A stretch of DNA of 64,000 nt from Spirochaetia bacterium (lineage in GTDB: Bacteria > Spirochaetota > Spirochaetia > UBA9216), in NCBI GenBank assembly GCA_965140585.1, contig OZ223270.1, forward strand, positions 320,001 through 384,000, written 5' to 3'. The position numbers and the translations under genes are program-made. This document shows, piece after piece, positions 21,089 through 59,327 of the stretch. The notes below the pieces were generated by a model. It was not told the origin of the DNA, did not search any database, and saw nothing but the letters and a program-made list of their open reading frames with translations. Position 1 is the stretch's first letter. Every line of letters starts with the position of its first letter.

Positions 21089-23134
21089 TTATTTCATCAT
21101 TACTGCCGCAGTAGGACAGACCTTGACGCATTCTCCGCAGCCGTCACATGTCGTATTAACCAGAGACTTGCCAAAAGGAGCCCGCATCCTTGTAACAAAA
21201 CCTCTGTTTACATAGGCCAGAACATCCAGCCCCTTTACTTCGGCACATGCACGCACACAGCTTCCGCAGTTGATACATTTACCGAATTCCATTTTAACAA
21301 GTTCATGAGTTCTGTCGACCTCATATTCCCTTCTTTCACCAAGGAAGTAGGACTGATCAGCACCGTAACGGCCCGAGTAGTCACGAAGCTTACAGTCATC
21401 TGCGGAATCACATCCGCATTTAAGACAGCGTTCGGCTTCCTTTCTGGCAAGTTCAGTACTGAAACCGGTCTCGATCTCTGTGAAAGTTGTATTTCTGGTT
21501 TTATCATCAATAAGAGGCATTTCGATCTTTGCCTGCTTTTCATAACCTTCGAAGAGCTTTTCGCTTACATCCTTGAGTTCACCCATCTTCGAGTTGAACA
21601 GTACAGGTTCACCTGTAACAGCTTCTCCGGCAAGGAACTGATTGATAGAGTAGGCAGCCTTTCTTCCGGCTCCAACTGCCCTTACGGCAATATCTGCACC
21701 GGTCTGACAGTCTCCGCAGGCAAAAACGCCGGGGCGTCCGGTCATATAGGTTTTTTCATCAGTTAGGATTGAACCCCATCTTGTAAGCTCTATTCCAAGC
21801 TCTGCGACAGACTCGGGAACGACCTTCTGGCCGATTGCTCCTATAACCGCGGATGCTTCAATTTTAAACTCTGAGCCCTTGATCTGAACAGGACTTCGGC
21901 GGCCACTTGCGTCAGGTTCACCGAGTTCCATTCTGATGCACTCAACCATCAGCTTGTTGCCCTCTTTGGAAATACCGACCGGAGCTGCAAGGTATTCTAT
22001 GTTTACGCCTTCATGAAGTGCTTCATCGATTTCAAAGTCGCTTGCAGGCATTTCAGCACGTGTTCTTCTGTAGAGGATGGTTACGTTCGCGCCCTTTCTG
22101 AGAGCAGATCGGGCAACATCGATAGCGGTATTTCCGCCTCCGACAACAACAACATTTGAGCCGACATCCGGGTCCTCATCCTCGGCAAGCTGACCAAGGT
22201 ATTCGATACCGGAAAGTACGCCGGGAAGATCTTCACCGGGAACCCTGATTGATGAGGCACCCTGAGCACCGATAGCAAGCAGAACTGAGTCGAACTCTTT
22301 TTCAAGATCTTTTGCACTGATGTCCTTGCCTACTGTTGTTTCGTATTTTACTGTTGCACCCATATCCTCTACAACACCGAGTTCGTCCATCAGGACTTCA
22401 TCCGGAAGTCTGTAATATGGAATACCATAGCGGAGCATACCGCCTGATTTTTTATGTGATTCGAACACAGTTACATTGTGGCCGTTGAGCCTTAAAAAGT
22501 ATGCGGCCGACATACCTGCAGGACCGGCACCGATAACTGCGACTTTCTTGCCAGTTGATGCTGCAGGAGAGGGAATCGAACGCTTGCCCAGTTCCTTCTT
22601 CTCAAAGTCGGAGATGTAGCGCTTCATGTAGCAGATGGACATAGCATCTTCCACACGGTTTCTGCGGCAGGCATCTTCACAGGGTCTTGGACATATTCGG
22701 CCGAGAATTCCCGGAATGGGGGCTTTTTCCCTGATTAGTTTTGCGGCTTCGAGTTCCTTACCCTCTGCAACAAGACCCATAAAGCCCTTGATGTCGATTG
22801 ATGAGGGACATGCATCCTCACAGGGAGGGAGACAGTCACCGCAGTGGTCGGAAAGAAGCAGGTTCAGACACATGCGTCTGGCTGCGTCGATTTCTTCTGA
22901 TTCAACAGTTACCACCATTCCGTCTCTGACCTTGGTTGCACAGGAAGGTACAAGGTTTCCCTTTCCACCCTCAACCTTTACCGCACAGATAAAGCAGCTT
23001 GTAAAAGGTTTGAGGTTTTCGGCATGACAGAATGTCGGAACGTCAAATCCGGCTGTTCTGGCGGCTTCAAGGATTGTGGAATCCGGCGCCACCTTTACTT
23101 CTATATCATTTATCTTAACTGAAACTTCAGACAT
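21089..23134 (-). CDS. Fe-S flavoprotein: NuoG/HydA-like N-terminal Fe-S domains with an inserted GltD/NfnB-like FAD/NADPH domain (StnC/NsoC-like, short form)
   Basis: PTFCH...CFICAV...SC 2Fe-2S motif; PPCEDACP, GRICPRPCE, GAGPAG, GGGNTAID, YRRT; C-terminal CINCGSCVRAC and CDGCGECVKVCP; no H-cluster or Mo domain. Confidence 0.8.
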   Translation of the reverse strand: MSEVSVKINDIEVKVAPDSTILEAARTAGFDVPTFCHAENLKPFTSCFICAVKVEGGKGNLVPSCATKVRDGMVVTVESEEIDAARRMCLNLLLSDHCGDCLPPCEDACPSSIDIKGFMGLVAEGKELEAAKLIREKAPIPGILGRICPRPCEDACRRNRVEDAMSICYMKRYISDFEKKELGKRSIPSPAASTGKKVAVIGAGPAGMSAAYFLRLNGHNVTVFESHKKSGGMLRYGIPYYRLPDEVLMDELGVVEDMGATVKYETTVGKDISAKDLEKEFDSVLLAIGAQGASSIRVPGEDLPGVLSGIEYLGQLAEDEDPDVGSNVVVVGGGNTAIDVARSALRKGANVTILYRRTRAEMPASDFEIDEALHEGVNIEYLAAPVGISKEGNKLMVECIRMELGEPDASGRRSPVQIKGSEFKIEASAVIGAIGQKVVPESVAELGIELTRWGSILTDEKTYMTGRPGVFACGDCQTGADIAVRAVGAGRKAAYSINQFLAGEAVTGEPVLFNSKMGELKDVSEKLFEGYEKQAKIEMPLIDDKTRNTTFTEIETGFSTELARKEAERCLKCGCDSADDCKLRDYSGRYGADQSYFLGERREYEVDRTHELVKMEFGKCINCGSCVRACAEVKGLDVLAYVNRGFVTRMRAPFGKSLVNTTCDGCGECVKVCPTAAVMMK

Positions 23135-23145
23135 TATTCTTACCT

Positions 23146-24903
23146 CTACTCCACATCGATGGCGTCAAACTTACAGGTGTCACGGCAGATACCGCATTTA
23201 ACGCATTTTTCAGGATCAATAAAATGAACACCCTTTCTTTCGCCGCTGATACACTTGGTAGGACAGGCCTTTGCACAGGCTGTACAACCGATACATTTAT
23301 CCGCATTCACTGTGAACTTGATAAGCGGCTTACAAACTCCGGCCGGACATTTCTTGTCGAAGATGTGGGCTTCATACTCATCTCTGAAGTACTTCAGGGT
23401 TGTGAGAACCGGGTTCGGCGCAAGCTGTCCCAGACCGCAGAGTGATGTCTTGTTGATATGTCCTGCAAGCTCTTCAAGCAGGGTAATATCACGTTCAACA
23501 CCCTTACCCTCGGTAATCCTTGTGAGAATTTCGAGCATTCGCTTTGTTCCGATTCGGCAGAAGGTACACTTACCGCAGCTTTCTTTCTGGGTAAAATTTA
23601 AAAAGTACCTTGCAACATCCACCATACAGGTCTGGTCGTCCATAACAACCATACCGCCGGAACCCATGATAGCACCGGTAGCGTTAATTGCATCATAGTC
23701 GATGGGTGTATCAAAGAGGCTTTCAGGAATACATCCGCCTGCAGGCCCGCCCATCTGGACAGCCTTTATAGGCCTTCCGGTTGAACTTCCGCCGCCGATT
23801 TCTTCAATTACCTCACGAAGCGTAAGCCCCATTGGAACTTCTACAAGTCCTACTCTTTTAATCTTTCCTGCAAGAGCAAAAACCTTGGTTCCGACACTCT
23901 TTTCGTAGGAGTATTTGTTAAAAGCCGAAGGCCCCTCACGCAGAATGAAAGGAACGTTCGAATATGTTTCTACGTTATTTATGTTAGTTGGCTTCTTATT
24001 GATACCTGCTTCAGCTGGAAAGGGGGGTCTGAGAGCCGGCATTCCGCGACGGCCTTCAATTGAAGCCATGAGAGCGGTTTCTTCACCGCATACAAATGCT
24101 CCTGCACCTTCCTTAACCTTGAGATGAAAGGAAAAGTCTGTTCCGAGGATGTTATCACCCATCAGGTTCTTCGCTTCCGCATCCTTAATTGCAATTTTAA
24201 GTCTCTTGATTGCAAGGGGATATTCAGCACGGCAGTAAACGTAACCGTAGCTTGCGCCTGTTGAATAGGCGGCAATAAGCATACCCTCGATTACTGCATG
24301 CGGGTCGCCCTCAAGCACTGCCCGGTCCATAAACGCACCGGGGTCGCCCTCATCGGCGTTACAGACCAGATACTTTGGCTCGTTCTTTGCGCCTGCAAGA
24401 AATGACCACTTAAGACCGGTAGTAAAACCCGCACCGCCGCGGCCTCTGAGGCCTGATTCCTTGACAGCTTCGATAACCTCTGCCGGCTTCATGGTTTTAA
24501 CGCACTTTTCAATTGCAGAATAACCGCCTGCAGCTATGTAGTCATCAATGCTTTCGGGATTAATAACACCGCAGTTTTTAAGAGCGATTTTCACCTGACG
24601 ATCCAGGTATTTTTTACCGGTTTCATCTTCTTTAATCCTGTTTTCAACAGGAAGATCTTCAAAATTATTTTTTACAGCTTCGATAAGCCTTTCAGTAAAC
24701 TTTGCATCAACATTACCGTACATAATCCGTTCGGTACCGTTGTCCAGTTCCACTATCGGCTCAGCGTAGCACATTCCTACACATGAAGTAACACTGAGTT
24801 CCGTACTCAGTTCAGCCTTTTCAAGCTGTTCATATACAGCCTTCGCACCTGCAGCAATACCGCAGGAGCCCATTCCTACTATTACCCTGCTGTTATTTAC
24901 CAT
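23146..24903 (-). CDS. NADH-binding FMN/Fe-S subunit, NuoF/HydB/BfuB family
   Basis: LRGRGGAGF, NADEGDPGAFMDR, GAFVCGEETAL, ESCGKCTFCR, CPAGVC and two C-terminal 4Fe-4S motifs; start at ATG 24903 overlapping the upstream gene end. Confidence 0.92.
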   Translation of the reverse strand: MVNNSRVIVGMGSCGIAAGAKAVYEQLEKAELSTELSVTSCVGMCYAEPIVELDNGTERIMYGNVDAKFTERLIEAVKNNFEDLPVENRIKEDETGKKYLDRQVKIALKNCGVINPESIDDYIAAGGYSAIEKCVKTMKPAEVIEAVKESGLRGRGGAGFTTGLKWSFLAGAKNEPKYLVCNADEGDPGAFMDRAVLEGDPHAVIEGMLIAAYSTGASYGYVYCRAEYPLAIKRLKIAIKDAEAKNLMGDNILGTDFSFHLKVKEGAGAFVCGEETALMASIEGRRGMPALRPPFPAEAGINKKPTNINNVETYSNVPFILREGPSAFNKYSYEKSVGTKVFALAGKIKRVGLVEVPMGLTLREVIEEIGGGSSTGRPIKAVQMGGPAGGCIPESLFDTPIDYDAINATGAIMGSGGMVVMDDQTCMVDVARYFLNFTQKESCGKCTFCRIGTKRMLEILTRITEGKGVERDITLLEELAGHINKTSLCGLGQLAPNPVLTTLKYFRDEYEAHIFDKKCPAGVCKPLIKFTVNADKCIGCTACAKACPTKCISGERKGVHFIDPEKCVKCGICRDTCKFDAIDVE

Positions 24904-25378
24904 TGGCGTATTCCTCAAGAATTTTTGTCATTTTGGCGGGTGTGAGCTTTCCATAGATGTTGTCATTTATCATAACAACCGGAGCAAGCGAACAGCATCC
25001 CAAACAGGCTACAGATTCAACTGTGAACATGCCGTCTTCTGTTGTTTCACCCTCATCCACTTTTAGATTTTCAGTGATAATGGAAAACACCTTTTCGGCT
25101 CCTGCTACGTGGCAGGCAGTCCCTTTACATACTTTCACGAGATATTTACCCATAGGTGTAAAACGGAACTGCGAGTAAAAAGTTGCTACTCCATAGAGCC
25201 TTGAAACAGGGAGATTAACTTCCGCGGCTACAGCTTCCACAAGTTCCTGTGAAAGATAACCGTGCCGGACCTGAATTTCCTGTAAAAGAGGAATTACCTT
25301 CTCCGGTTCAGAACCGACTTTCTGGACGATTTCGCGGGCTTCCTCTACGATTGCGTTTCCGCAGTCAGCACAAGACAT
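24893..25378 (-). CDS. 2Fe-2S subunit, NuoE/HydC/BfuC family
   Basis: YGVATFYSQF, VCKGTACH and CLGCCSLAPV motifs; AAGGAGG RBS; TTGAAA-17-TACACT promoter upstream. Confidence 0.92.
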   Translation of the reverse strand: MSCADCGNAIVEEAREIVQKVGSEPEKVIPLLQEIQVRHGYLSQELVEAVAAEVNLPVSRLYGVATFYSQFRFTPMGKYLVKVCKGTACHVAGAEKVFSIITENLKVDEGETTEDGMFTVESVACLGCCSLAPVVMINDNIYGKLTPAKMTKILEEYANGK

Positions 25379-26542: not shown

Positions 26543-27568
26543 TTAAAAAATAACATTCTGCTCCTGCACGGCCCGTTTAATCTGGTCGTGCTGAGTGTTC
26601 AGGTCTTCAATTTCCTTCTGCCAGAAGGCTCGGCTTCCCCAGTCGGGAAAATGCTGCTGAAACTTGTAGTCATGCCGCTGCGAACCGCACCAGCATAGAA
26701 AATAGATCATCCGCATTGCGCGCAGGGGTTCTATAAGCATCAGGGTTTCGGTGTTGAAAGACCGGAACTCCCGGTAGCCTTCAAGGATTAGGGCTATTTC
26801 CTTTCCTGAGTCAGGTGCATGATCGGGCAGTAGAAGCCAGAGATCCTGAACCGGCAGCGACATGGACATATCATCAAAATCTATCACCATAAGCCCCTCT
26901 CCGGGCCGTTCAAGAAGGTTGCCGCTGTGAAAGTCGCCGTGCACACGTATGAGTTCATCATTTCCGTACTCACTGAATAGGTTATCCACCGATTCCTGCA
27001 GTCTGGTGACAGAGGCCTCCAGATCTGCGTACAGTTCCTGCGGAACCCAGTCGGAGCCGAGAAGTTTATCAACATCAGCCGCAAAGCCTTCCGAAGCCGT
27101 AAGCGTAATACGGTTTTTAGCCTGGCGCTCAGAGCCTACGTTGTGAATCCTTGCCAGTAGTGAACCTACCCTGCCCCAGGCTTCCTCATCGGAGGATTCC
27201 CATAGGCGGCCTCCCTTGCGGGGAAATACGGCAAAGGGCATGCCTTCTATACGTCCAAGTGTAGGAGCTGAGGACTCATCCCCGTCGTCAACCAGACCGG
27301 TAAGTTTTAATGGGGCGGCGACAGGGATATCAGAAGCCTCACAGTCAAGGATGAAGCGGTGTTCCTCAAGAATGGCCTTATCGGACCAGCGTCCCGGACG
27401 GTAGAATTTTACGATATAATAATTTCCTTCATCATCCTTAAGCTCGAAAACGCGGTTGATGTAACTGGGCATGGGCTGGGTGTAGCCGGTAAGATCGATA
27501 TCAAGCCCGGCCTCTACAGCGTCGATTACAAGATCGGGTGACAGGTTTTCAAATTCCGATTTATTCAT
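26543..27568 (-). CDS. srkA: Stress response Ser/Thr kinase (SrkA/RdoA/YihE family)
   Basis: SYINRV, KFYRPGRWS, HGDFHSGN, DFDD, QDLWLLL, IEPLRAMR. Confidence 0.9.
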   Translation of the reverse strand: MNKSEFENLSPDLVIDAVEAGLDIDLTGYTQPMPSYINRVFELKDDEGNYYIVKFYRPGRWSDKAILEEHRFILDCEASDIPVAAPLKLTGLVDDGDESSAPTLGRIEGMPFAVFPRKGGRLWESSDEEAWGRVGSLLARIHNVGSERQAKNRITLTASEGFAADVDKLLGSDWVPQELYADLEASVTRLQESVDNLFSEYGNDELIRVHGDFHSGNLLERPGEGLMVIDFDDMSMSLPVQDLWLLLPDHAPDSGKEIALILEGYREFRSFNTETLMLIEPLRAMRMIYFLCWCGSQRHDYKFQQHFPDWGSRAFWQKEIEDLNTQHDQIKRAVQEQNVIF

Positions 27569-27615: not shown

Positions 27616-28815
27616 TCATGCGTTGAATTTAATAGTGCAGATAGTTCCTTTATCGTTCACAAGAGTAATTTCACCTTCCAGCTGACTCACCATCATATCT
27701 ATCAGAAACAATCCAAATCCGGACGTCTTCCTGGAAATATAATCTTCAGAAAGGCCCAGGCCGTTATCCCTGATCTCCAATATGACTTTCCCTTTAATCT
27801 GATGCATGCTTAATTCAATCTTTCCTGATTGTCTTCCAATAAATGCATATTTCATTGCGTTTGTTATCAGCTCATTCACGATAATCCCAATCAGAAACAG
27901 CTTTTTCACATCCATAGTAAAATCATCGATATGTTTTTCAAGCTTAATATTATGGACTTCTGAAAAAATTGCCATGACTGCCTGCAACAGATCTTCAAGA
28001 TAATCTTTGACTGAAACCTCATTGAAACTTTCGTTCAAAAGCATCTTCTGATACAGCTGCCCCATACTCTCAACTCTGCCAATCGCATCAAGAAGCGCCG
28101 ATTTGCCTTCTCCATCCGGCATATTATTTGCCTGAAGGCTCAGGAGGGTTTCGATATATACAAAATTATTCTTTATTCGGTGATGAACTTCACGTAGAAT
28201 TATTTCTTTCTGCTCCAGCTGCTGCCTAATTATAACTTCATCTTCCTTCACTTTAATCTGAGCCTGTTTATGAGCTGCCGACTCCTTTTCAAGCAGTATG
28301 TTGGAGTAGCTTAAATCTGATACCATTTTGAAAAATCTGACCAGGAAAGACATCAGATCATCAACATACTCTCTGCTATACCGGGGAACCCTATGAAGCG
28401 CATCGAGATAAAGATCTCTGTCGAAGCCGTATTCTTCTGCCTGCTTGATAAAAACATCCTCATCTACAACATCTTCTTCATAGAAAAACTGTCCCGTAAA
28501 AATGTTTCCTATGTGTTTTCCACCAATATACAGCGGCGTTACAACATCCCAGAGACCGTTTTTACATTTATACGACGCGACTTCGCCCGGTTTGATTCTG
28601 CTGGACAGGTTAAGATCACTTTCAATACAGTTTTTTGCTGATTTATCATTAATCCTGTGAAACTTTGTGCATATATCCTGCCACCCGGTTGCAACAAGAA
28701 TATTTCCTTTTATATCCAGAAGTGCAGAAACCATACCGGTAAATTTATACAGGAGCTCCATAACAGACTGAATTTCTTCACGATTTATAATTTCTTCGAG
28801 ATTGATTTCATCCAT
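27616..28815 (-). CDS. Cytoplasmic histidine kinase, PocR sensor plus HisKA_2/HATPase
   Basis: GWQDICTKFHR...C..SD and YKCKNGL PocR motifs; EVHHRIKNNF, NELITNAMKYAF, DNGLG, GFGL. Confidence 0.88.
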   Translation of the reverse strand: MDEINLEEIINREEIQSVMELLYKFTGMVSALLDIKGNILVATGWQDICTKFHRINDKSAKNCIESDLNLSSRIKPGEVASYKCKNGLWDVVTPLYIGGKHIGNIFTGQFFYEEDVVDEDVFIKQAEEYGFDRDLYLDALHRVPRYSREYVDDLMSFLVRFFKMVSDLSYSNILLEKESAAHKQAQIKVKEDEVIIRQQLEQKEIILREVHHRIKNNFVYIETLLSLQANNMPDGEGKSALLDAIGRVESMGQLYQKMLLNESFNEVSVKDYLEDLLQAVMAIFSEVHNIKLEKHIDDFTMDVKKLFLIGIIVNELITNAMKYAFIGRQSGKIELSMHQIKGKVILEIRDNGLGLSEDYISRKTSGFGLFLIDMMVSQLEGEITLVNDKGTICTIKFNA

Positions 28816-28892: not shown

Positions 28893-28950
28893 TTGACATT
28901 ATATAGAACTTATTATATATTACTAAAAGCAAATGTTGCTAAGCGCAAAT
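28893..28950 (+). promoter_or_regulatory. Sigma70 promoter plus tandem operator repeats upstream of the MarR operon
   Basis: TTGACA (28893), 17 nt, TATATT (28916); repeats TTACTAAAAGCAAAT (28920-28934) and TTGCTAAGCGCAAAT (28936-28950), 12/15 identical. Confidence 0.7.
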
Positions 28951-28980
28951 ATTTCATTATAATTACTATTGGAGAACATT

Positions 28981-29376
28981 TTGATCGACCAGATACTTGA
29001 GTTGAAAAAAAAGTGTAATTTCGACCGCGAGATAGGAGAAGCCCTTAACCTTAAAGATAAGGAAATTTCCGCCATTGCCGCCATCGCTGAATGCAGTGAA
29101 CTTACATCAAAAGAAGTATCAGATCAGATTTTGCTGTCACCTTCCAGAGGAAGCAGGGTGATAACCGGCCTTATGGAAAAGGGCCTTGTTGAACTTAACC
29201 ACAACAGCGACGACAGAAGGGTTATCAATATCACTCTTACCAGGGCCGGAGAAGCATGCTACTCAAATATGGTTGAAGAAATAAAGAAATGCGAACGGCG
29301 CCTTACAGAGAATCTTACCGAGCAGGAAAAGCTGATTATTTCAGAAGGCCTGCAGATATTACTGAAAACGATATAG
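28981..29376 (+). CDS. MarR family transcriptional regulator with four Cys
   Basis: Winged HTH LSPSRGSRVITGLMEKGLV and DDRRVINITLTRAG; TTG 28981 has GGAG 6 nt upstream (the ORF track starts at TTG 28969). Confidence 0.9.
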   Translation: MIDQILELKKKCNFDREIGEALNLKDKEISAIAAIAECSELTSKEVSDQILLSPSRGSRVITGLMEKGLVELNHNSDDRRVINITLTRAGEACYSNMVEEIKKCERRLTENLTEQEKLIISEGLQILLKTI

Positions 29377-29384
29377 GAGAGAAA

Positions 29385-30047
29385 ATGGCTGAAACAAATA
29401 CTTCAAACGCAATAAATATAAGGTATTCGGATCTGGCGGAAACAAGCTGCTGCCTTTCATGCGGCGGGGCTGTAAATCATAGCAAGGCTAAAACCGGTGA
29501 GGTTTGTGTCGATCTTGGAAGCGGAAGAGGTACTGACGTCCTCAGGCTGGCTGAAGATGTGGGCGAAACAGGTTTTGTATACGGTATTGATCTTTCAGAC
29601 GGGATGATACGGAAAGCCGAAAAAACAGCAGAAAGGCTTGGCGTTAAAAACGTGAAATTTGAACAGGCGGATCTTGAAGCACTTCCGGTTGAAGATTCCA
29701 CCGTTAATCTAGTGATCTCAAACTGTGTAATTAATCATGCTGAAAACAAACAGAATGTATGGAACGAAGTTTACAGAATTCTGAAAAAGGGCGGACGCTT
29801 TGTTGTCAGTGATATCTATTCAAGTGAACCTGTTCCTGAAGAATATAAAAACGATCCTGAAGCAGTAGCAGAATGCTGGGCGGGCTCAGTTACCCGTGAA
29901 GTGTATCTGAATCAGCTTGCTGCAGCGGGATTTAAGGATGTAGAGATTCTTGAAGAAAGCAATCCCTACCCCAAAGGCAAGATTGAAGTTAGCAGCTGGA
30001 CCATTCTGGGCAAAAAACCGGGTGGCTGCAGCTGTAACAATAATTAA
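29385..30047 (+). CDS. SAM-dependent methyltransferase, arsenite methyltransferase (ArsM/AS3MT)-like
   Basis: DLGSGRG motif I; Cys motifs LSCGG, ISNCVIN and ECWAG equivalent to ArsM; extra SCC and terminal CSC; ATG 29385 with AGGAG RBS. Confidence 0.85.
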   Translation: MAETNTSNAINIRYSDLAETSCCLSCGGAVNHSKAKTGEVCVDLGSGRGTDVLRLAEDVGETGFVYGIDLSDGMIRKAEKTAERLGVKNVKFEQADLEALPVEDSTVNLVISNCVINHAENKQNVWNEVYRILKKGGRFVVSDIYSSEPVPEEYKNDPEAVAECWAGSVTREVYLNQLAAAGFKDVEILEESNPYPKGKIEVSSWTILGKKPGGCSCNNN

Positions 30048-30058
30048 AGGAGTGGTAG

Positions 30059-30154
30059 ATGAAATCACTTATCAAGAAGAAACCGGAAGGCAAAAAAGAA
30101 GTAGCTCAGTGCTGCGCTAAGCTTTCCAAAGTTGTGGCCGGCTGCCACGATTAA
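30059..30154 (+). CDS. Unannotated 31-aa Cys-rich peptide, putative radical SAM-modified RiPP precursor (MKSLIKKKPEGKKEVAQCCAKLSKVVAGCHD)
   Basis: AAGGAG at 30047-30052, 6 nt before ATG 30059; TAA at 30152-30154; Lys-rich leader-like half and Cys-containing core; directly upstream of a SPASM maturase. Confidence 0.85.
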   Translation: MKSLIKKKPEGKKEVAQCCAKLSKVVAGCHD

Positions 30155-30161
30155 TCCTTTA

Positions 30162-30192
30162 CCGGAGCGGAGGGTTTAATCCTCCGTTCCGG
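30162..30192 (+). other. Intergenic RNA hairpin after the precursor peptide gene
   Basis: CCGGAGCGGAGG-GTTTAAT-CCTCCGTTCCGG 12-bp stem with no clear U-tract. Confidence 0.75.
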
Positions 30193-30217: not shown

Positions 30218-31540
30218 ATGGAATATACATTATCGAAACATAATATTATCGGGAAACTTGCGGACTCAGAAAACTGGTACATCGTAAACCCTTTAAGCAG
30301 GAACGCAGACATCATTACTTCTGAAACCGCTGATGCGCTGAATGAGGGAACCTTTACAAATCATGAAGAACTTCTGGAAAAGGGCTACATCGTTGACCTC
30401 ACTGAAGAGGATAAAACATTCAGAACTGAATACCTGAGTTTCATTGACAACCGTGAAACTGATGAAATCCAAATCTTTTATGTACCGACCTATGCCTGCA
30501 ACTTTGCATGTTCATACTGCTACCAGGAAGGCTATTCTCATGATAAGAACGAAAAGCCGCTGGAAGTAATTGATGCATTTTTCAGTTACATCGATAAGGA
30601 ATTCGCCGGACGCAGAAAATATATAACCGTTTTCGGAGGCGAACCTATGCTGCCGGATCCGCTGACCCGGGAAAAACTCGGCCATATTATTAAGAATGCC
30701 AATGAGAGAAATCTGTCTCTTGCCTTTGTGACCAACGGCTATACCCTTGAATCCTACGTTCCGATGCTGCAGATGGCCAGCGTAAGGGAAGTACAGGTTA
30801 CCCTGGACGGACCGGCAGAAGTTCATGATAAGCGCAGAATGCTCAGAGGCGGAAAGGGTACTTTCAGTGAAATAGCCGACGGAATAAATGCAGCTCTCAG
30901 AGCAGACATTCCAATAAACCTGAGGGCGGTTATAGACAGGGACAACCTGCCTTCACTGCCTGAGCTTGCAGAGTTTGCAGTATCACAGGGATGGACCGAT
31001 AATAAACTTTTTAAAACACAGCTCGGCCGAAATTATGAACTGCACTACTGTCAGGCGGATGAGAACAGACTTTACGACAGACTGACAATGTATGCAGATC
31101 TGTATGAGCTTATTAAGAAAAATCCGGTGATAATGCAGTTTCACCGTCCGGCATATTCGATTTCAAGATTTCTATTTGACAACGGAGAGATGCCGGAACC
31201 GCTGTTTGACTCATGTCCGGGCTGCAAAACCGAGTGGGCCTTTGACTACACAGGAAACATCTACTCGTGCACCGCGACAGTCGGTAAGAGCGGAGAAGAA
31301 CTTGGAACTTTTTATCCTTCTGTTACAAGGAAGGAAGAAATAATAGAAGAATGGCAGGATCGCGATGTCACATCAATCAGTGAATGCGCGGACTGTTCAC
31401 TTAAGCTGGCATGCGGCGGAGGCTGTGCTTCTGTAGCCAAGAACAAATCCGGCAGGATTTGCTCCCCTGACTGCCGTCCTGTAGACGGACTGTTGTCATA
31501 CGGACTTTCGCTTTATTTCGGAGAAGAAGCGGAAGCTTAA
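30218..31540 (+). CDS. Radical SAM/SPASM domain peptide maturase
   Basis: CNFACSYC radical SAM motif, FGGEP, TNG, VTLDG...HDKRR; SPASM Cys pattern CPGC...IYSC...CADCSLKLACGGGC...C; N-terminal RRE-like segment ending LLEKGYIV. Confidence 0.92.
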   Translation: MEYTLSKHNIIGKLADSENWYIVNPLSRNADIITSETADALNEGTFTNHEELLEKGYIVDLTEEDKTFRTEYLSFIDNRETDEIQIFYVPTYACNFACSYCYQEGYSHDKNEKPLEVIDAFFSYIDKEFAGRRKYITVFGGEPMLPDPLTREKLGHIIKNANERNLSLAFVTNGYTLESYVPMLQMASVREVQVTLDGPAEVHDKRRMLRGGKGTFSEIADGINAALRADIPINLRAVIDRDNLPSLPELAEFAVSQGWTDNKLFKTQLGRNYELHYCQADENRLYDRLTMYADLYELIKKNPVIMQFHRPAYSISRFLFDNGEMPEPLFDSCPGCKTEWAFDYTGNIYSCTATVGKSGEELGTFYPSVTRKEEIIEEWQDRDVTSISECADCSLKLACGGGCASVAKNKSGRICSPDCRPVDGLLSYGLSLYFGEEAEA

Positions 31541-31576: not shown

Positions 31577-32860
31577 ATGGCAGGAAAAATTAAAGAGATT
31601 CAGCAGGCAGATTTTGAGAATGAAGTACTGAAAGCAGATAAGGTAGCTGTAGATTTCTACTCAACCGAATGTCCGCCCTGTGAGGCGCTTGCAGCTAAGT
31701 ATGAAAGCCTCAGTATAATATACGGTGATGATATAAAATTTATCAAAATATTCCGTCAGGGAAACAGAGAACTTGCACAGGAACTTGATATCAGCGGTTC
31801 ACCTACAGTTATATTCTATAATAACGGAGAGAGAACCGGAGCAACACTCACAGGCGGGATAAAAAGATCAGAGCTGATGGAAAACCTTGATGCTCTTCTT
31901 CCTGCAGAAAAAGTAGAAGAAATTCATGCAAAGATTGCACCCGTGGTTACCAACGCTGATGTTGTAATCCTCGGCGGCGGGCCTGCAGGTCTTACTGCAG
32001 GAGTATATCTTGCTCAGGCTCATCTTAAAACTATACTCGTTGATACAGCACTTCCCGGAGGATATGTTGCAACTACACACCAGGTATCAAACTATCCCGG
32101 TTTCATTGAACCGCAGCAGGGATACATGCTTAGCCATTACATGAGCGAGCAGGCAAAGGCTAATGGTGTTGAGTTCAGAAGTGCGGTTGAAGTAACAAAG
32201 GTCGACCTTGCAAACAAGAGTATTCTTGTAGACGGATTTGAAACAATAGAAGCCAAAAAGGTTGTTATAGCTACAGGCTCAAGACCAAGACCACTGGGAA
32301 TCCCCGGCGAAAAAGAATATGCAGGTCAGGGAATCAGTTACTGTGCAACATGCGACGGAAAATACTTTGAAGGAAAGGAAATCGTCGTTATAGGAGGCGG
32401 AAACTCTGCTATTGAAGAATCGCTATTCCTCTCAAAATTCGCCAGTAAAATAACCATTGTTCATCAGTTCGACACTCTGCAGGCAAACAAGGAAGCTCAG
32501 CAGAAAATCTTTGACGATCCTAAGGTTAACATCATGTTTGAACATGAGCCCAGAGAGTTTAAAAAATACGGCAACATGGACATGGCTGTAGTAGTTGAAG
32601 ATCTTAAAACCGGTGAAAAGAAAGAGGTTAAAACTAACGGTATTTTCGTATTCGTAGGCTTTATACCAAATCTTGAAAGCTTTCATGACAAACTTGAAAC
32701 AGACCAGTGGGGATATCTTAAGACCACTGAAAACATGGAAACAAATATCCCCGGAGTTTTTGCAGTGGGCGATGTTAAAACCAAGGCTTACCGCCAGATA
32801 ACAACCGCTGTTTCTGATGGAACAATTGCCGCAATTACAATATCAAAAGAACTTTCCTGA
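31577..32860 (+). CDS. Thioredoxin (N-terminal, CPPC) fused to thioredoxin reductase
   Basis: DFYSTECPPC and SPT Trx fold; GGGPAGLTAG, NYPGF, SYCATCDG, GGGNSA and VFAVGDV...QITTA TrxR motifs. Confidence 0.92.
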   Translation: MAGKIKEIQQADFENEVLKADKVAVDFYSTECPPCEALAAKYESLSIIYGDDIKFIKIFRQGNRELAQELDISGSPTVIFYNNGERTGATLTGGIKRSELMENLDALLPAEKVEEIHAKIAPVVTNADVVILGGGPAGLTAGVYLAQAHLKTILVDTALPGGYVATTHQVSNYPGFIEPQQGYMLSHYMSEQAKANGVEFRSAVEVTKVDLANKSILVDGFETIEAKKVVIATGSRPRPLGIPGEKEYAGQGISYCATCDGKYFEGKEIVVIGGGNSAIEESLFLSKFASKITIVHQFDTLQANKEAQQKIFDDPKVNIMFEHEPREFKKYGNMDMAVVVEDLKTGEKKEVKTNGIFVFVGFIPNLESFHDKLETDQWGYLKTTENMETNIPGVFAVGDVKTKAYRQITTAVSDGTIAAITISKELS

Positions 32861-32883
32861 TAAGTGGTTAGTTTCTAATATTG

Positions 32884-32920
32884 AAGCCTGTATCGTATAA
32901 CCCGGTGCAGGCTTTTTTTT
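32884..32920 (+). terminator. Rho-independent terminator closing the MarR-radical SAM operon
   Basis: AAGCCTGTATCG...CGGTGCAGGCTT running into an 8-T tract. Confidence 0.85.
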
Positions 32921-58226: not shown

Positions 58227-58385
58227 GAAATATTTAAAAAAAATCCAGCCGATTTTTATATATAGCGTATTTCCTATGTTGATTTTTTTTCGTATATTGA
58301 TAGACAAGCTTATATTAAAACAAACCATTATTCTTCTTATTTGAAAGGATTTGTGTTAAATTAATTCTATACAGGAGTGTTATCT

Positions 58386-59327
58386 ATGAAAAAAATTATC
58401 ATTGTCGGATCGGGACCTGCCGGTCATACTGCAGCAATATACAGCGCCCGGGCAGGAATGGACCCGCTTATGTACGAAGGCTGGATGGCCGGAGGAATCG
58501 CCCCGGGAGGACAGCTTACAACTACCGGAACAGTAGAAAACTTCCCCGGATTTCCTGACGGAGTCGGGGGAACAGAACTAATGATGATGATGAGGGCACA
58601 GGCTGTGAATACCGGTGTCGAGATTCTTACAGAAACAGTTGATTCAGTTGACCTCTCAAAACGGCCCTTCAAGGTTGTTACTTCAGAAGGCGAACAGGAA
58701 GCTGAAGTAGTAATAATTGCCACCGGAGCTATTGCAAAAAGAATGAGAGTTCCGCACGAAGATGATTTCTGGCAGAGGGGAATTTCCGCCTGTGCCGTAT
58801 GCGACGGAGCACTTCCGGTATTCAGAAATCAGCCCCTCGTTGTTGTCGGCGGCGGAGATTCGGCCATGGAAGAGGCCATGCACCTTTCCAAATTCGGAAG
58901 CAAGGTTTATATCGTTCACAGAAGAGACGAATTAAGAGCCAGCAAGGCAATGCAGGAGAGAGTTTTAGCGAATCCTAAAATAGAGGTACTTTGGAGCACG
59001 ACCCTGGTTGATGTTAAAGGCGATAATGCACTGACTCATGTGGTTCTTGAAGATGTTAAAACCGGCGAACAGCGGGATCACGAGGCGAAGGGTCTTTTCT
59101 ATGCAATAGGACACAAGCCCAACACTGATTTTCTTGCAGGACAGCTTGAACTTGATTCGGAAGGGTATATAATAACAAAAACCGGAACAACAGAAACTTC
59201 GGTAGAAGGCGTTTTTGCCGCCGGTGATGTTCAGGATAAAAAGTACAGACAGGCTATTACATCTGCAGGATCCGGCTGCATGGCCGCGCTTGAAGCAGAA
59301 AAATATATATCAGCTAACCCTCTTTAA
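58386..59327 (+). CDS. trxB: Thioredoxin-disulfide reductase
   Basis: [54 protein letters not shown]. Confidence 0.96.

Follow-up and report, generated by a model that had tools for sequence, protein, structure and literature searches.

The window, a stretch of 64,000 nucleotides from a Spirochaetia bacterium, holds a very short open reading frame wedged between a methyltransferase gene and a radical SAM (rSAM) gene. Is this short frame a gene at all and, if so, what does its product do in the company of these enzymes? The frame lies in a compact cassette made up of the following features:

28893..28921, + strand, promoter-like site TTGACA-17-TATATT upstream of the cassette (11/12, a consensus match only)
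28969..29376, + strand, MarR-family regulator, whose gene opens the cassette (Pfam MarR_2, 29.9 bits, cut-off 27)
29385..30047, + strand, ArsM-like SAM methyltransferase of 220 aa, with its likely start at ATG 29385 and GGAGAG 5' of it
30047..30052, + strand, ribosome-binding site AAGGAG, separated by a 6-nt spacer from the peptide ATG
30059..30154, + strand, gene for a 31-aa precursor-type peptide, ATG start and TAA stop
30162..30192, + strand, stem-loop of 14 bp between the peptide and rSAM genes, with no T-run in this copy
30218..31540, + strand, radical SAM/SPASM enzyme with a predicted N-terminal RRE-like domain, the presumed maturase
31577..32860, + strand, fusion of a thioredoxin (CPPC) and a low-molecular-weight thioredoxin reductase (CATC)
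32883..32915, + strand, terminator-like hairpin with a T-run at the end of the cassette

The full product of the short frame at 30059..30154 (+) is MKSLIKKKPEGKKEVAQCCAKLSKVVAGCHD. It comprises the leader MKSLIKKKP, a variable linker and the invariant core AQCCAKxSxxxxGCHD, which runs up to the stop codon. Translation thus bears out the 31-residue ORF with a CC-x9-C-H-D motif that the original prediction had described. The AAGGAG site also sits where it had been placed, 6 nt 5' of the ATG and overlapping the end of the methyltransferase gene, whose stop codon TAA (30045-30047) shares its last base with the first A of the site. A GGAG-type site precedes most homologues of the peptide gene. For the methyltransferase, ATG 29385 is the likely start, rather than the start of the open reading frame at 29289.

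We searched 41 related genomes, 16 of which have the rSAM enzyme, and found the peptide encoded directly upstream of the rSAM gene in all 16. This confirms the proposed precursor-type small gene beside a radical SAM/SPASM enzyme. Among the 13 distinct peptide sequences, 15 of the 31 residues are invariant. Variable columns fall at codon positions 1, 2 and 3 in the numbers 16, 14 and 29 over the whole ORF and 3, 3 and 15 over the core codons 16-31; mean pS is 0.744 and mean pN 0.162, giving a ratio of 0.22. The codon-level conservation test that had been proposed therefore comes out in favour of a translated frame, and each of the five alternative frames is interrupted by stops in at least 9 and up to all 15 of the 15 sequences. 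A chance ORF is ruled out by the conservation together with the codon-position pattern. An alignment of 94 sequences shows no variation at the three Cys, at the His or at the terminal Asp, as the expectation of conserved cysteines would have it. The 31-residue ORF is a genuine, widely conserved gene under strong purifying selection.

A profile search among 1.84 billion proteins, of the kind suggested for this motif next to SPASM genes, recovered 117 cluster representatives at E<=1e-3. The pattern QCC[AGS]K-x6-GCHD stands at the C-terminal end of 110 of these representatives, and eight of the 117 carry an extra CCAP. A second search gave at least 1497 protein clusters at E<=1e-3; among the 120 listed matches of these 1497, the sole name is 'hypothetical protein' and no Pfam domain occurs. 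The peptide itself has no match in Pfam or NCBIfam at E<=0.01. Within the phylum, the exact core pattern is present in 38 of 401 genomes and the reversed control pattern in none. The core is near-invariant over lineages whose GC content ranges from 0.37 to 0.74. The ESM Atlas matches are clusters named 'hypothetical protein' (0.84-0.87) and one CLI_3235 bacteriocin cluster (0.79); none attains the 0.9 level, which makes them leads only. The peptide family is large and so far unnamed. Its members are mostly 30-50 residues long, a size that gene callers and ORF tracks can discard, and the copy in the window falls under the ORF-track cutoff.

The stretch after the peptide stop can form a stable structure. 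In the window, segment 30152-30217 has a minimum free energy of -26.4 kcal/mol (z -3.85). Just past the peptide stop, 41 of 91 loci have a stable structure (z < -2, from mononucleotide shuffles), as does a single one of 79 control segments drawn from 400 nt beyond. Such a hairpin directly 3' of an ORF with tandem Cys codons would suit a regulatory leader that attenuates rSAM expression according to cysteine supply, the peptide itself being functionless. We find this barely credible: non-Cys positions (A, Q, K, S, G, H, D) are kept through synonymous change, about half of the loci have no hairpin, the N-terminal segment is predicted to dock on the rSAM enzyme (see below), and the peptide occurs in four natural in-frame fusions with the methyltransferase (P0223, P0225, P0226 and P0227).

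The partners of the peptide are constant. The ArsM-like, rSAM and Trx-TrxR genes are all present in 12 of 12 genome loci, and a MarR regulator adjoins the cassette in 10 of them. In the metagenome loci, the ArsM-like gene lies upstream of the peptide in 47 of the 54 with enough flank, the rSAM gene directly downstream in 35 of 41 (and in 14/14 genome loci), and a TrxR is found in 18 of 22; as a naive ORF caller was used, these metagenome partner counts (80 loci) are lower bounds. One locus (L109) has the rSAM gene on the opposite strand and Trx and TrxR matching as separate segments, so that the partnership survives rearrangement. Two others (L039 and L056) have the ArsM-like gene and the peptide with no rSAM gene directly downstream, and one (L068) has no ArsM-like gene inside 3.5 kb upstream. 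The regulators in the neighbourhoods belong to the MarR or Crp type or are Zn-ribbon proteins. The genome of the window has two more TrxR-like genes (42% and 39% identity), which makes the cassette TrxR an extra copy. Regulator, ArsM-like methyltransferase, peptide, rSAM/SPASM enzyme and Trx-TrxR fusion form a fixed module. Since the peptide is nearly always encoded between an ArsM-like methyltransferase and a peptide-modifying rSAM enzyme, a new system of peptide modification probably has it as its substrate. We put at roughly 60% the probability that the ORF encodes the substrate peptide of an uncurated radical SAM/SPASM modification system within this five-part module.

The presumed maturase has the CxxxCxxC motif (C94, C98 and C101) and seven invariant C-terminal Cys. 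Its structure model (pLDDT 91.5) begins with an N-terminal domain of three strands followed by helices, predicted to be an RRE-like fold, which is succeeded by the rSAM and SPASM parts. The best solved sequence match is CteB (E 1.1e-24, profile positions 29-413), which is also the best fold match along the full length of the enzyme (5why/5wgg, TM 0.66-0.71, 18-20% identity). The enzyme scores under every NCBIfam cut-off. Its best matches, which extend over nearly its whole length, are CefB of the CefA/CefB (Cys-every-fifth) system (NF038107, 135.7 vs 600) and the rSAM/SPASM RiPP maturases of TIGR04463 (130.1, cut-off 525). Judged from the model names, these act on Cys-rich peptide substrates, as is proposed here; however, the cassette enzyme belongs to neither family and the peptide motif is unrelated.

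The likeness to CteA/CteB (SCIFF/thermocellin) extends to the layout of the locus: both systems have the three-part RRE / radical SAM / SPASM architecture and a short, conserved, Cys-bearing peptide encoded directly upstream of the enzyme. The cassette peptide differs in having three Cys in 31 residues and another motif, and the enzyme, besides its low identity to CteB, is far under the cut-off of the SCIFF maturase model (TIGR03974, 79.7 bits vs 425). To our knowledge, SCIFF loci likewise lack a dedicated protease or exporter, and we know of no fixed ArsM-like methyltransferase and Trx-TrxR fusion partners in them.

Modelling the peptide together with the rSAM enzyme gave a complex score of 0.81 (0.81, 0.82 and 0.81 in three runs), with 0.02 for the best of three controls; among solved complexes 58 of 80 attain the mark that this score passes, and among mismatched pairs 2 of 110 do so. 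In the model, residues 1-8 of the peptide lie against residues 21-33, 37, 48, 51, 55, 319-325 and 430-440 of the enzyme. The runs share at least 46% of contacts, the partner pLDDT is 44-47, and the model is confident for the leader only, with the core unplaced. The complex of CteB with its leader has already been solved, and the docking pass may therefore reflect likeness to that complex. The basic N-terminal half had been likened to a RiPP leader at the outset, and the model agrees in placing residues 1-8 on the RRE-like domain. At the level of structure prediction, the MKSLIKKK segment is thus supported as a leader that docks on the RRE-like domain at the N-terminus of the CteB-like enzyme.

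If CteB and its relatives are a guide, a leader docked in this way would present the core AQCCAKxSxxxxGCHD to the rSAM active site, where at least one core Cys may be turned into a thioether-type cross-link. The Cys thiolate would bind to an auxiliary Fe-S cluster while the 5'-deoxyadenosyl radical takes a hydrogen from the acceptor carbon. This putative thioether chemistry is extrapolated from the closest enzyme of solved structure, with which identity is only 18-20%.

What is absent from the neighbourhoods bears on the fate of the product. No protease or exporter, ABC exporters included, recurs in the 94 neighbourhoods, and neither does a peptidase, oxidase or glycosyltransferase. Because the module comprises no protease or exporter and distant lineages share an unchanged core, the product most likely remains cytoplasmic. 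The alternative of a secreted RiPP of the classical type with an antimicrobial or signalling function, a sactipeptide or ranthipeptide that methylation would tailor, would agree with the CteB-like maturase, the adjacent methyltransferase and the frequent hairpin after the precursor gene, which suits precursor over-expression. We regard it as improbable, since in addition to the missing export functions the core hardly varies over the GC range given above, unlike antimicrobial cores, the leader has only ~8 residues, and nothing would explain why the metalloid-binding Cys of the methyltransferase are invariant.

A better parallel for the conservation is found in cofactor precursors. In the mycofactocin (MftA/B/C) and PQQ (PqqA/D/E) systems, an rSAM/SPASM enzyme and an RRE act on a short peptide with an invariant core at its C-terminus, and the product is intracellular. 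The cassette peptide could accordingly give rise to a small redox cofactor that is excised from it, with the rSAM/SPASM enzyme modifying the invariant C-terminal residues and housekeeping peptidases releasing a molecule for the methyltransferase or the Trx-TrxR. An invariant core that is always exactly C-terminal, an rSAM/SPASM enzyme with an RRE, the lack of an exporter and a degree of conservation seen in cofactor precursors but not in antibiotics are all consistent with such a scheme. It is nevertheless unlikely: no peptidase or follow-up enzyme recurs around the cassette, and the mycofactocin maturase model scores 67.6 bits on the cassette enzyme against a cut-off of 265. The cassette also differs from these systems in that its RRE forms part of the enzyme, whereas theirs is a separate protein. 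We return to the favoured reading, in which the peptide is an rSAM/SPASM substrate. The invariant core, its fixed C-terminal position and the linkage to three enzymes point to a conserved biochemical role, for instance as cofactor or carrier, rather than to a variable antibiotic. The mature product is most likely a cytoplasmic cofactor- or carrier-like thiol peptide and not an antibiotic.

The methyltransferase offers a clue to this role. It has the class I SAM methyltransferase fold (Pfam Methyltransf_31, 120.8 bits), and its best solved relatives are the arsenic methyltransferases 4kw7/4fr0 (E 4.6e-23). All 62 cassette homologues examined have Cys residues aligned with C72, C174 and C224 of 4fr0. 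As to a fourth, N-terminal Cys (the counterpart of C44), 95% of the methyltransferase homologues have a CC pair, but only two residues before the C72 equivalent; in the canonical ArsM copies of related genomes the CC pair lies ~45 residues upstream. The cassette enzyme is 37-40% identical to those canonical copies and, at ~220 aa, is a trimmed version: it scores 199.7 bits with NF008823, under the cut-off of 263, and the match is limited to profile positions 58-233 of 272, so that both the C-terminal domain of canonical ArsM and its long N-terminal arm are missing. The genomes with a high-identity ArsM-like gene are exactly those 16 that have the rSAM gene. A CCAP like the extra one in some of the peptides is also found in the N-terminal Cys-rich arm of one canonical ArsM homologue (L157) of the five compared.

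The wider arsenic context is sparse. No canonical ars gene recurs in the 94 neighbourhoods, the ArsR, Acr3 and ArsC families included, and in the genome of the window the acr3 family (TIGR00832) reaches a sub-threshold 87.4 bits vs 282.8. Together with regulators of the MarR, Zn-ribbon and Crp types, this weakens a plain arsenic-resistance role. The As-binding Cys kept by the methyltransferase and the dedicated Trx-TrxR fusion lend indirect support to a possible link of the module with arsenic. In the original prediction the three Cys were possible thioether donors or a possible three-thiolate site for As(III)/Sb(III), and the terminal CHD a possible metal ligand.

Given the three thiols, the peptide might act unmodified. 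In this alternative it would be an As(III)/Sb(III) metallochaperone or buffer, comparable to ArsD or As(GS)3, that feeds the ArsM-like enzyme while the rSAM enzyme acts elsewhere, on an arsenical or another protein. ArsD binds As(III) via a vicinal CC and a third Cys; the cassette peptide has no homology to it, as judged by the lack of a Pfam or NCBIfam match, and shares the idea of a CC plus a third Cys. The fixed spacing of these residues in 110 of the 117 representatives, the invariant As-binding Cys of the methyltransferase, the dedicated Trx-TrxR, the natural fusions of methyltransferase and peptide, the two loci without an adjacent rSAM gene and the CCAP shared with a canonical ArsM homologue would all fit. 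We consider it doubtful, however, because the enzyme has the full RRE/rSAM/SPASM architecture of a peptide maturase, on which the leader is predicted to dock, because its gene directly follows that of the peptide in 35 of 41 metagenome loci and in all 14 genome loci, and because a simple chelator needs no such conserved leader.

If the peptide is instead a substrate of the rSAM/SPASM enzyme, as we favour, it probably works with the ArsM-like enzyme, whose metalloid-binding Cys are kept, and the dedicated Trx-TrxR would keep its thiols reduced. The peptide could serve as a thiol ligand that passes a soft metalloid, e.g. As(III), to the methyltransferase; alternatively, it could itself be methylated. 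For ArsM, As(GS)3, a tri-thiolate conjugate of As(III), is described as the preferred substrate, and Trx is suggested as the reductant of its disulfide cascade (PMC6138428). The cassette resembles this arrangement in that the peptide offers three thiols, the module has its own Trx-TrxR and the methyltransferase aligns with 4fr0/4kw7 and keeps all three equivalent Cys. As a tentative proposal, which we hold to be possible and well short of probable, the module may be a self-contained metalloid-methylation machine, in which a ribosomally made, rSAM-matured tri-thiol peptide takes the place of glutathione. The CC...C site of the peptide would bind As(III), Sb(III) or a similar soft metalloid and present it to the trimmed ArsM, with the Trx-TrxR of the module recycling the peptide. 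In the boldest form of this proposal, the rSAM enzyme or the methyltransferase would make a covalent organo-arsenic or S-methylated peptide, that is, a metalloid-linked RiPP.

A literature search returned no description of the peptide or the module in the texts it covered; the enzyme family may be listed in the supplements of a compendium of RiPP-linked rSAM enzymes with ~15,000 proteins (PMC10288494). Independently of any link to ArsM, the cassette provides a clean new substrate-enzyme pair for radical SAM chemistry, with a very short and easily synthesised peptide. A functional link to the ArsM-like enzyme would offer a testable answer to the question of the role that ArsM-type genes have in anaerobes without glutathione, and metalloid methylation would gain a peptide partner. 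Should the tentative proposal of a metalloid-methylation machine be true, the family would constitute a new class of cofactors or carriers derived from a peptide, one that is widespread in anaerobic sediment bacteria.

The 31-codon peptide gene lies in a cassette with a MarR regulator, an ArsM-like methyltransferase, a radical SAM (rSAM)/SPASM enzyme and a thioredoxin-thioredoxin reductase (Trx-TrxR) fusion. The original prediction had described the ORF and its ribosome-binding site exactly (ATG at 30059, TAA to 30154, 31 codons, 6-nt spacing).

Features of the cassette in the window
28893-28921, promoter-like site
28969-29376, MarR regulator
29385-30047, ArsM-like methyltransferase, likely true start ATG 29385 (GGAGAG upstream)
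30047-52, AAGGAG, 6 nt 5' of the peptide ATG, sharing the last base of the preceding gene's stop codon
30059-30154 (+), peptide ORF, product MKSLIKKKPEGKKEVAQCCAKLSKVVAGCHD
30162-30192, hairpin of 14 bp between the peptide and rSAM genes
30218-31540, rSAM/SPASM enzyme
31577-32860, Trx-TrxR fusion
32883-32915, terminator-like hairpin

Of 41 related genomes, 16 encode an rSAM homologue (identity 56-96%), and all 16 have a small ORF immediately 5' of the rSAM gene; two of the matches are split, with only the 3' parts in loci L015 and L016 and the peptide in the 5' parts (L017 and L018). The peptide is exactly 31 codons long in 15 loci and slightly longer at the N-terminus in one, and 15 of its 31 residues are invariant among 13 distinct sequences. 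In the DNA alignment, codon positions 1 and 2 are held and position 3 is free, with 16, 14 and 29 variable columns at positions 1, 2 and 3 over the whole ORF and 3, 3 and 15 over codons 16-31. Mean pS is 0.744 and mean pN 0.162 (ratio 0.22), and in each of the remaining five frames 9 to 15 of the 15 sequences are interrupted by stops. The codon-level comparison proposed with the original prediction returned protein-level constraint: selection acts on the peptide itself rather than on its RNA or a handful of regulatory codons. A regulatory leader ORF is an improbable alternative reading.

A profile built from the 13 peptides recovered 117 proteins at E<=1e-3 from a set of 1.84 billion cluster representatives. 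The exact C-terminal end QCC[AGS]K-x6-GCHD is present in 110 of these and an MKSL-like start in 109, joined by a linker of variable length that includes a second CC pair in 20 proteins (in the form CCAP in eight). In a collection of 5.8 billion proteins, 1497 clusters matched at E<=1e-3; among the 120 cluster matches listed, the sole name is "hypothetical protein" and no Pfam domains occur, and the peptide itself had zero matches in Pfam and NCBIfam. The exact degenerate DNA pattern of the core matched at least 120 metagenome stretches. In the window's phylum, 38 of 401 genomes carry it (reversed control pattern, 0). Carriers are labelled as Spirochaetia MAGs, a Candidatus Thalassospirochaeta, one Bacteroidales MAG and one Pseudomonadota MAG, although MAG labels may be imprecise, and the GC content of the loci ranges from 0.37 to 0.74. 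The profile search also returned P0088, a predicted protein of 243 aa in which a unit of about 56 aa is repeated four times in tandem; every unit contains a degenerate stretch resembling the core (ATCCVKTPT.SSGCRD). P0088 may be a repeat element translated in a chance frame.

The order of methyltransferase, rSAM and Trx-TrxR genes is kept in all 12 fetched genome loci, 10 of which have MarR at the cassette, and the flanking genes vary. ORF clustering over 94 loci, many of them short (80 metagenome loci, 13 genome loci and the window), placed ArsM-like proteins in 71, rSAM enzymes in 69 and TrxR in 57. In loci with enough flank, the ArsM-like gene is upstream of the peptide in 47 of 54 metagenome and 13 of 14 genome loci, rSAM directly downstream in 35/41 and 14/14, and TrxR within 6.5 kb in 18/22 and 12/12, all lower bounds because the simple ORF caller overlooked some genes visible to tblastn. 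Loci L039 and L056 contain the ArsM-like gene and the peptide without an adjoining rSAM gene, and L068 lacks the ArsM-like gene upstream. In a high-GC subclass, Trx and TrxR match separately after the peptide, and in its member L109 the rSAM gene has the opposite orientation; the partners persist despite the changed gene order. The small gene is genuine and widespread, has no name, is under strong constraint and keeps three constant partner enzymes.

Peptides of L109, L084, L076, L090 and similar high-GC metagenome loci read MK(L/M)LTKP..ACCAPE..AAQCCAKASRLVSGCHD, with a second CC pair, and L084 has the end of the rSAM gene 5' of the peptide. Among five canonical ArsM homologues listed, one (L157) likewise has CCAP, in its N-terminal Cys-rich arm. 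In L056 (8501-10076), the genes after the peptide encode a TrmO/TsaA-like protein, a DUF1847 protein and another SAM methyltransferase. As a minor neighbour, DUF6132 recurs in 16 loci, a zinc-ribbon protein of IS1595 type in 15, DUF302 in 11, MarR in 10, DUF1847 in 8, Crp in 7 and rhodanese in 6; an additional small thioredoxin recurs as well. In 41 of 91 loci a stable hairpin (z < -2) comes after the stop codon of the peptide, compared with 1 of 79 control segments (mononucleotide shuffles). Such a hairpin would fit with more peptide than enzyme being made, but roughly half of the loci lack it.

Upstream of the cassette, Pfam annotations and translations gave the following.

Wider surroundings in the window
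21089-25378 (-), three consecutive Fe-S/flavoprotein ORFs of 681, 590 and 161 aa
25502-26530 (+), NYN-domain protein
26543-27568 (-), APH-family phosphotransferase
27616-28815 (-), PocR-sensor histidine kinase

Judged from their translations, the three Fe-S/flavoprotein ORFs look like NuoE/NuoF-type and glutamate-synthase-like subunits of an electron-bifurcating hydrogenase or oxidoreductase. The NYN and APH genes also adjoin the cassette in three genus g4 loci where seen and in a same-genus genome (L019), but not in more distant genomes, so this is local synteny only.

The rSAM enzyme has CxxxCxxC (C94, C98, C101) and seven invariant C-terminal Cys, and does not reach the curated cut-off for any NCBIfam maturase family (best scores, CefB 135.7 vs 600 and TIGR04463 130.1 vs 525). 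In its model (pLDDT 91.5), a strand-strand-strand-helix-helix domain at the N-terminus precedes a radical SAM barrel and a SPASM part. The nearest solved relative by sequence (E 1.1e-24) and by fold (5why/5wgg, TM 0.66-0.71, identity just 18-20%) is CteB, maturase of the SCIFF/thermocellin system, followed by the folds of anSME, SuiB and ChlB.

In one complex prediction with our own alignments (38 enzymes, 94 peptides), the peptide and the rSAM enzyme scored 0.81 (runs 0.81, 0.82, 0.81; best of three controls 0.02), a pass that may reflect likeness to the solved CteB-leader complex. Of 80 solved complexes, 58 reach the benchmark mark, as do 2 of 110 mismatched pairs; these counts are only rough here because own alignments were used. 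At least 46% of contacts agree between runs, with partner pLDDT of 44-47. Where the predicted interface is confident, peptide residues 1-8 contact enzyme residues 21-33 (strand three of the N-terminal domain), 37, 48, 51, 55, 319-325 and 430-440; the core is without confident placement. Pairing of a leader with the RRE strand is the usual binding mode. The model supports, but does not demonstrate, binding of the peptide to the CteB-like enzyme, whose RRE would recognise MKSLIKKK as a putative leader, in line with the leader-like N-terminal part originally proposed. An unmodified metallochaperone, as an alternative reading of the peptide, has to be weighed against this predicted contact with a presumed maturase.

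The closest solved relatives of the methyltransferase are the arsenic methyltransferases 4kw7/4fr0 (E 4.6e-23). Its Cys in LSCGG, SNCVIN and AECWAG align to C72, C174 and C224 and are kept in 62 of 62 cassette homologues, 95% of which have a CC pair two residues upstream of the aligned Cys. It is a trimmed form (about 220 aa, profile positions 58-233 of 272) that scores below the cut-off of the ArsM profile NF008823 (199.7 vs 263). The genomes that have copies with 58-100% identity are exactly the 16 with the rSAM gene, and canonical ArsM-type copies (37-40% identity, 264-309 aa) occur in other genomes or as second copies; the cassette methyltransferase is a distinct subfamily. In four natural proteins (P0223, P0225, P0226 and P0227), and in the fragment P0222, an ArsM-like methyltransferase continues in frame into an MKSL...AQCCAK...GCHD peptide. 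Whether these are genuine fusions or gene calls that read through a stop, the two genes abut in frame in four divergent lineages. An ArsM-like match elsewhere (L161, G038:C18:31435-31932) has one in-frame TGA and no uninterrupted frame of >=150 aa containing the motif; it may be a selenocysteine form, because NCBIfam has ArsM selenoprotein models.

The Trx-TrxR fusion is an additional copy, because the genome has two other TrxR-like genes, one in the window at 58377-59309 (+), with 39% identity to the reductase part of the fusion, and one on another contig.

Peptides modified by rSAM/SPASM enzymes are already known as a kind of system; the peptide family, the enzyme subfamily and the fixed coupling to ArsM-like and Trx-TrxR proteins were not found in Pfam, NCBIfam or the literature searched. 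Among the ORFs of the 94 loci, we found no recurrent ArsR, Acr3 or ArsC family near the peptide. The reading that ties the module to arsenic is indirect: ars genes are not recurrent nearby and the regulators are not ArsR. According to the review PMC6138428, the As(III) form that ArsM prefers is a tri-thiolate conjugate with glutathione, and thioredoxin is suggested to reduce the enzyme's disulfide cascade; a three-Cys peptide and a dedicated Trx-TrxR beside a trimmed ArsM match this picture. Less probably, the peptide would be a secreted RiPP or the source of an excised cofactor. No recurrent protease or exporter was found near the peptide among the ORFs of the 94 loci, which, together with cofactor-precursor-like conservation, argues for an intracellular product. 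We infer that the rSAM enzyme would modify the invariant core, most likely via a Cys-derived thioether, and that the product would remain inside the cell and work with the ArsM-like enzyme and Trx-TrxR.
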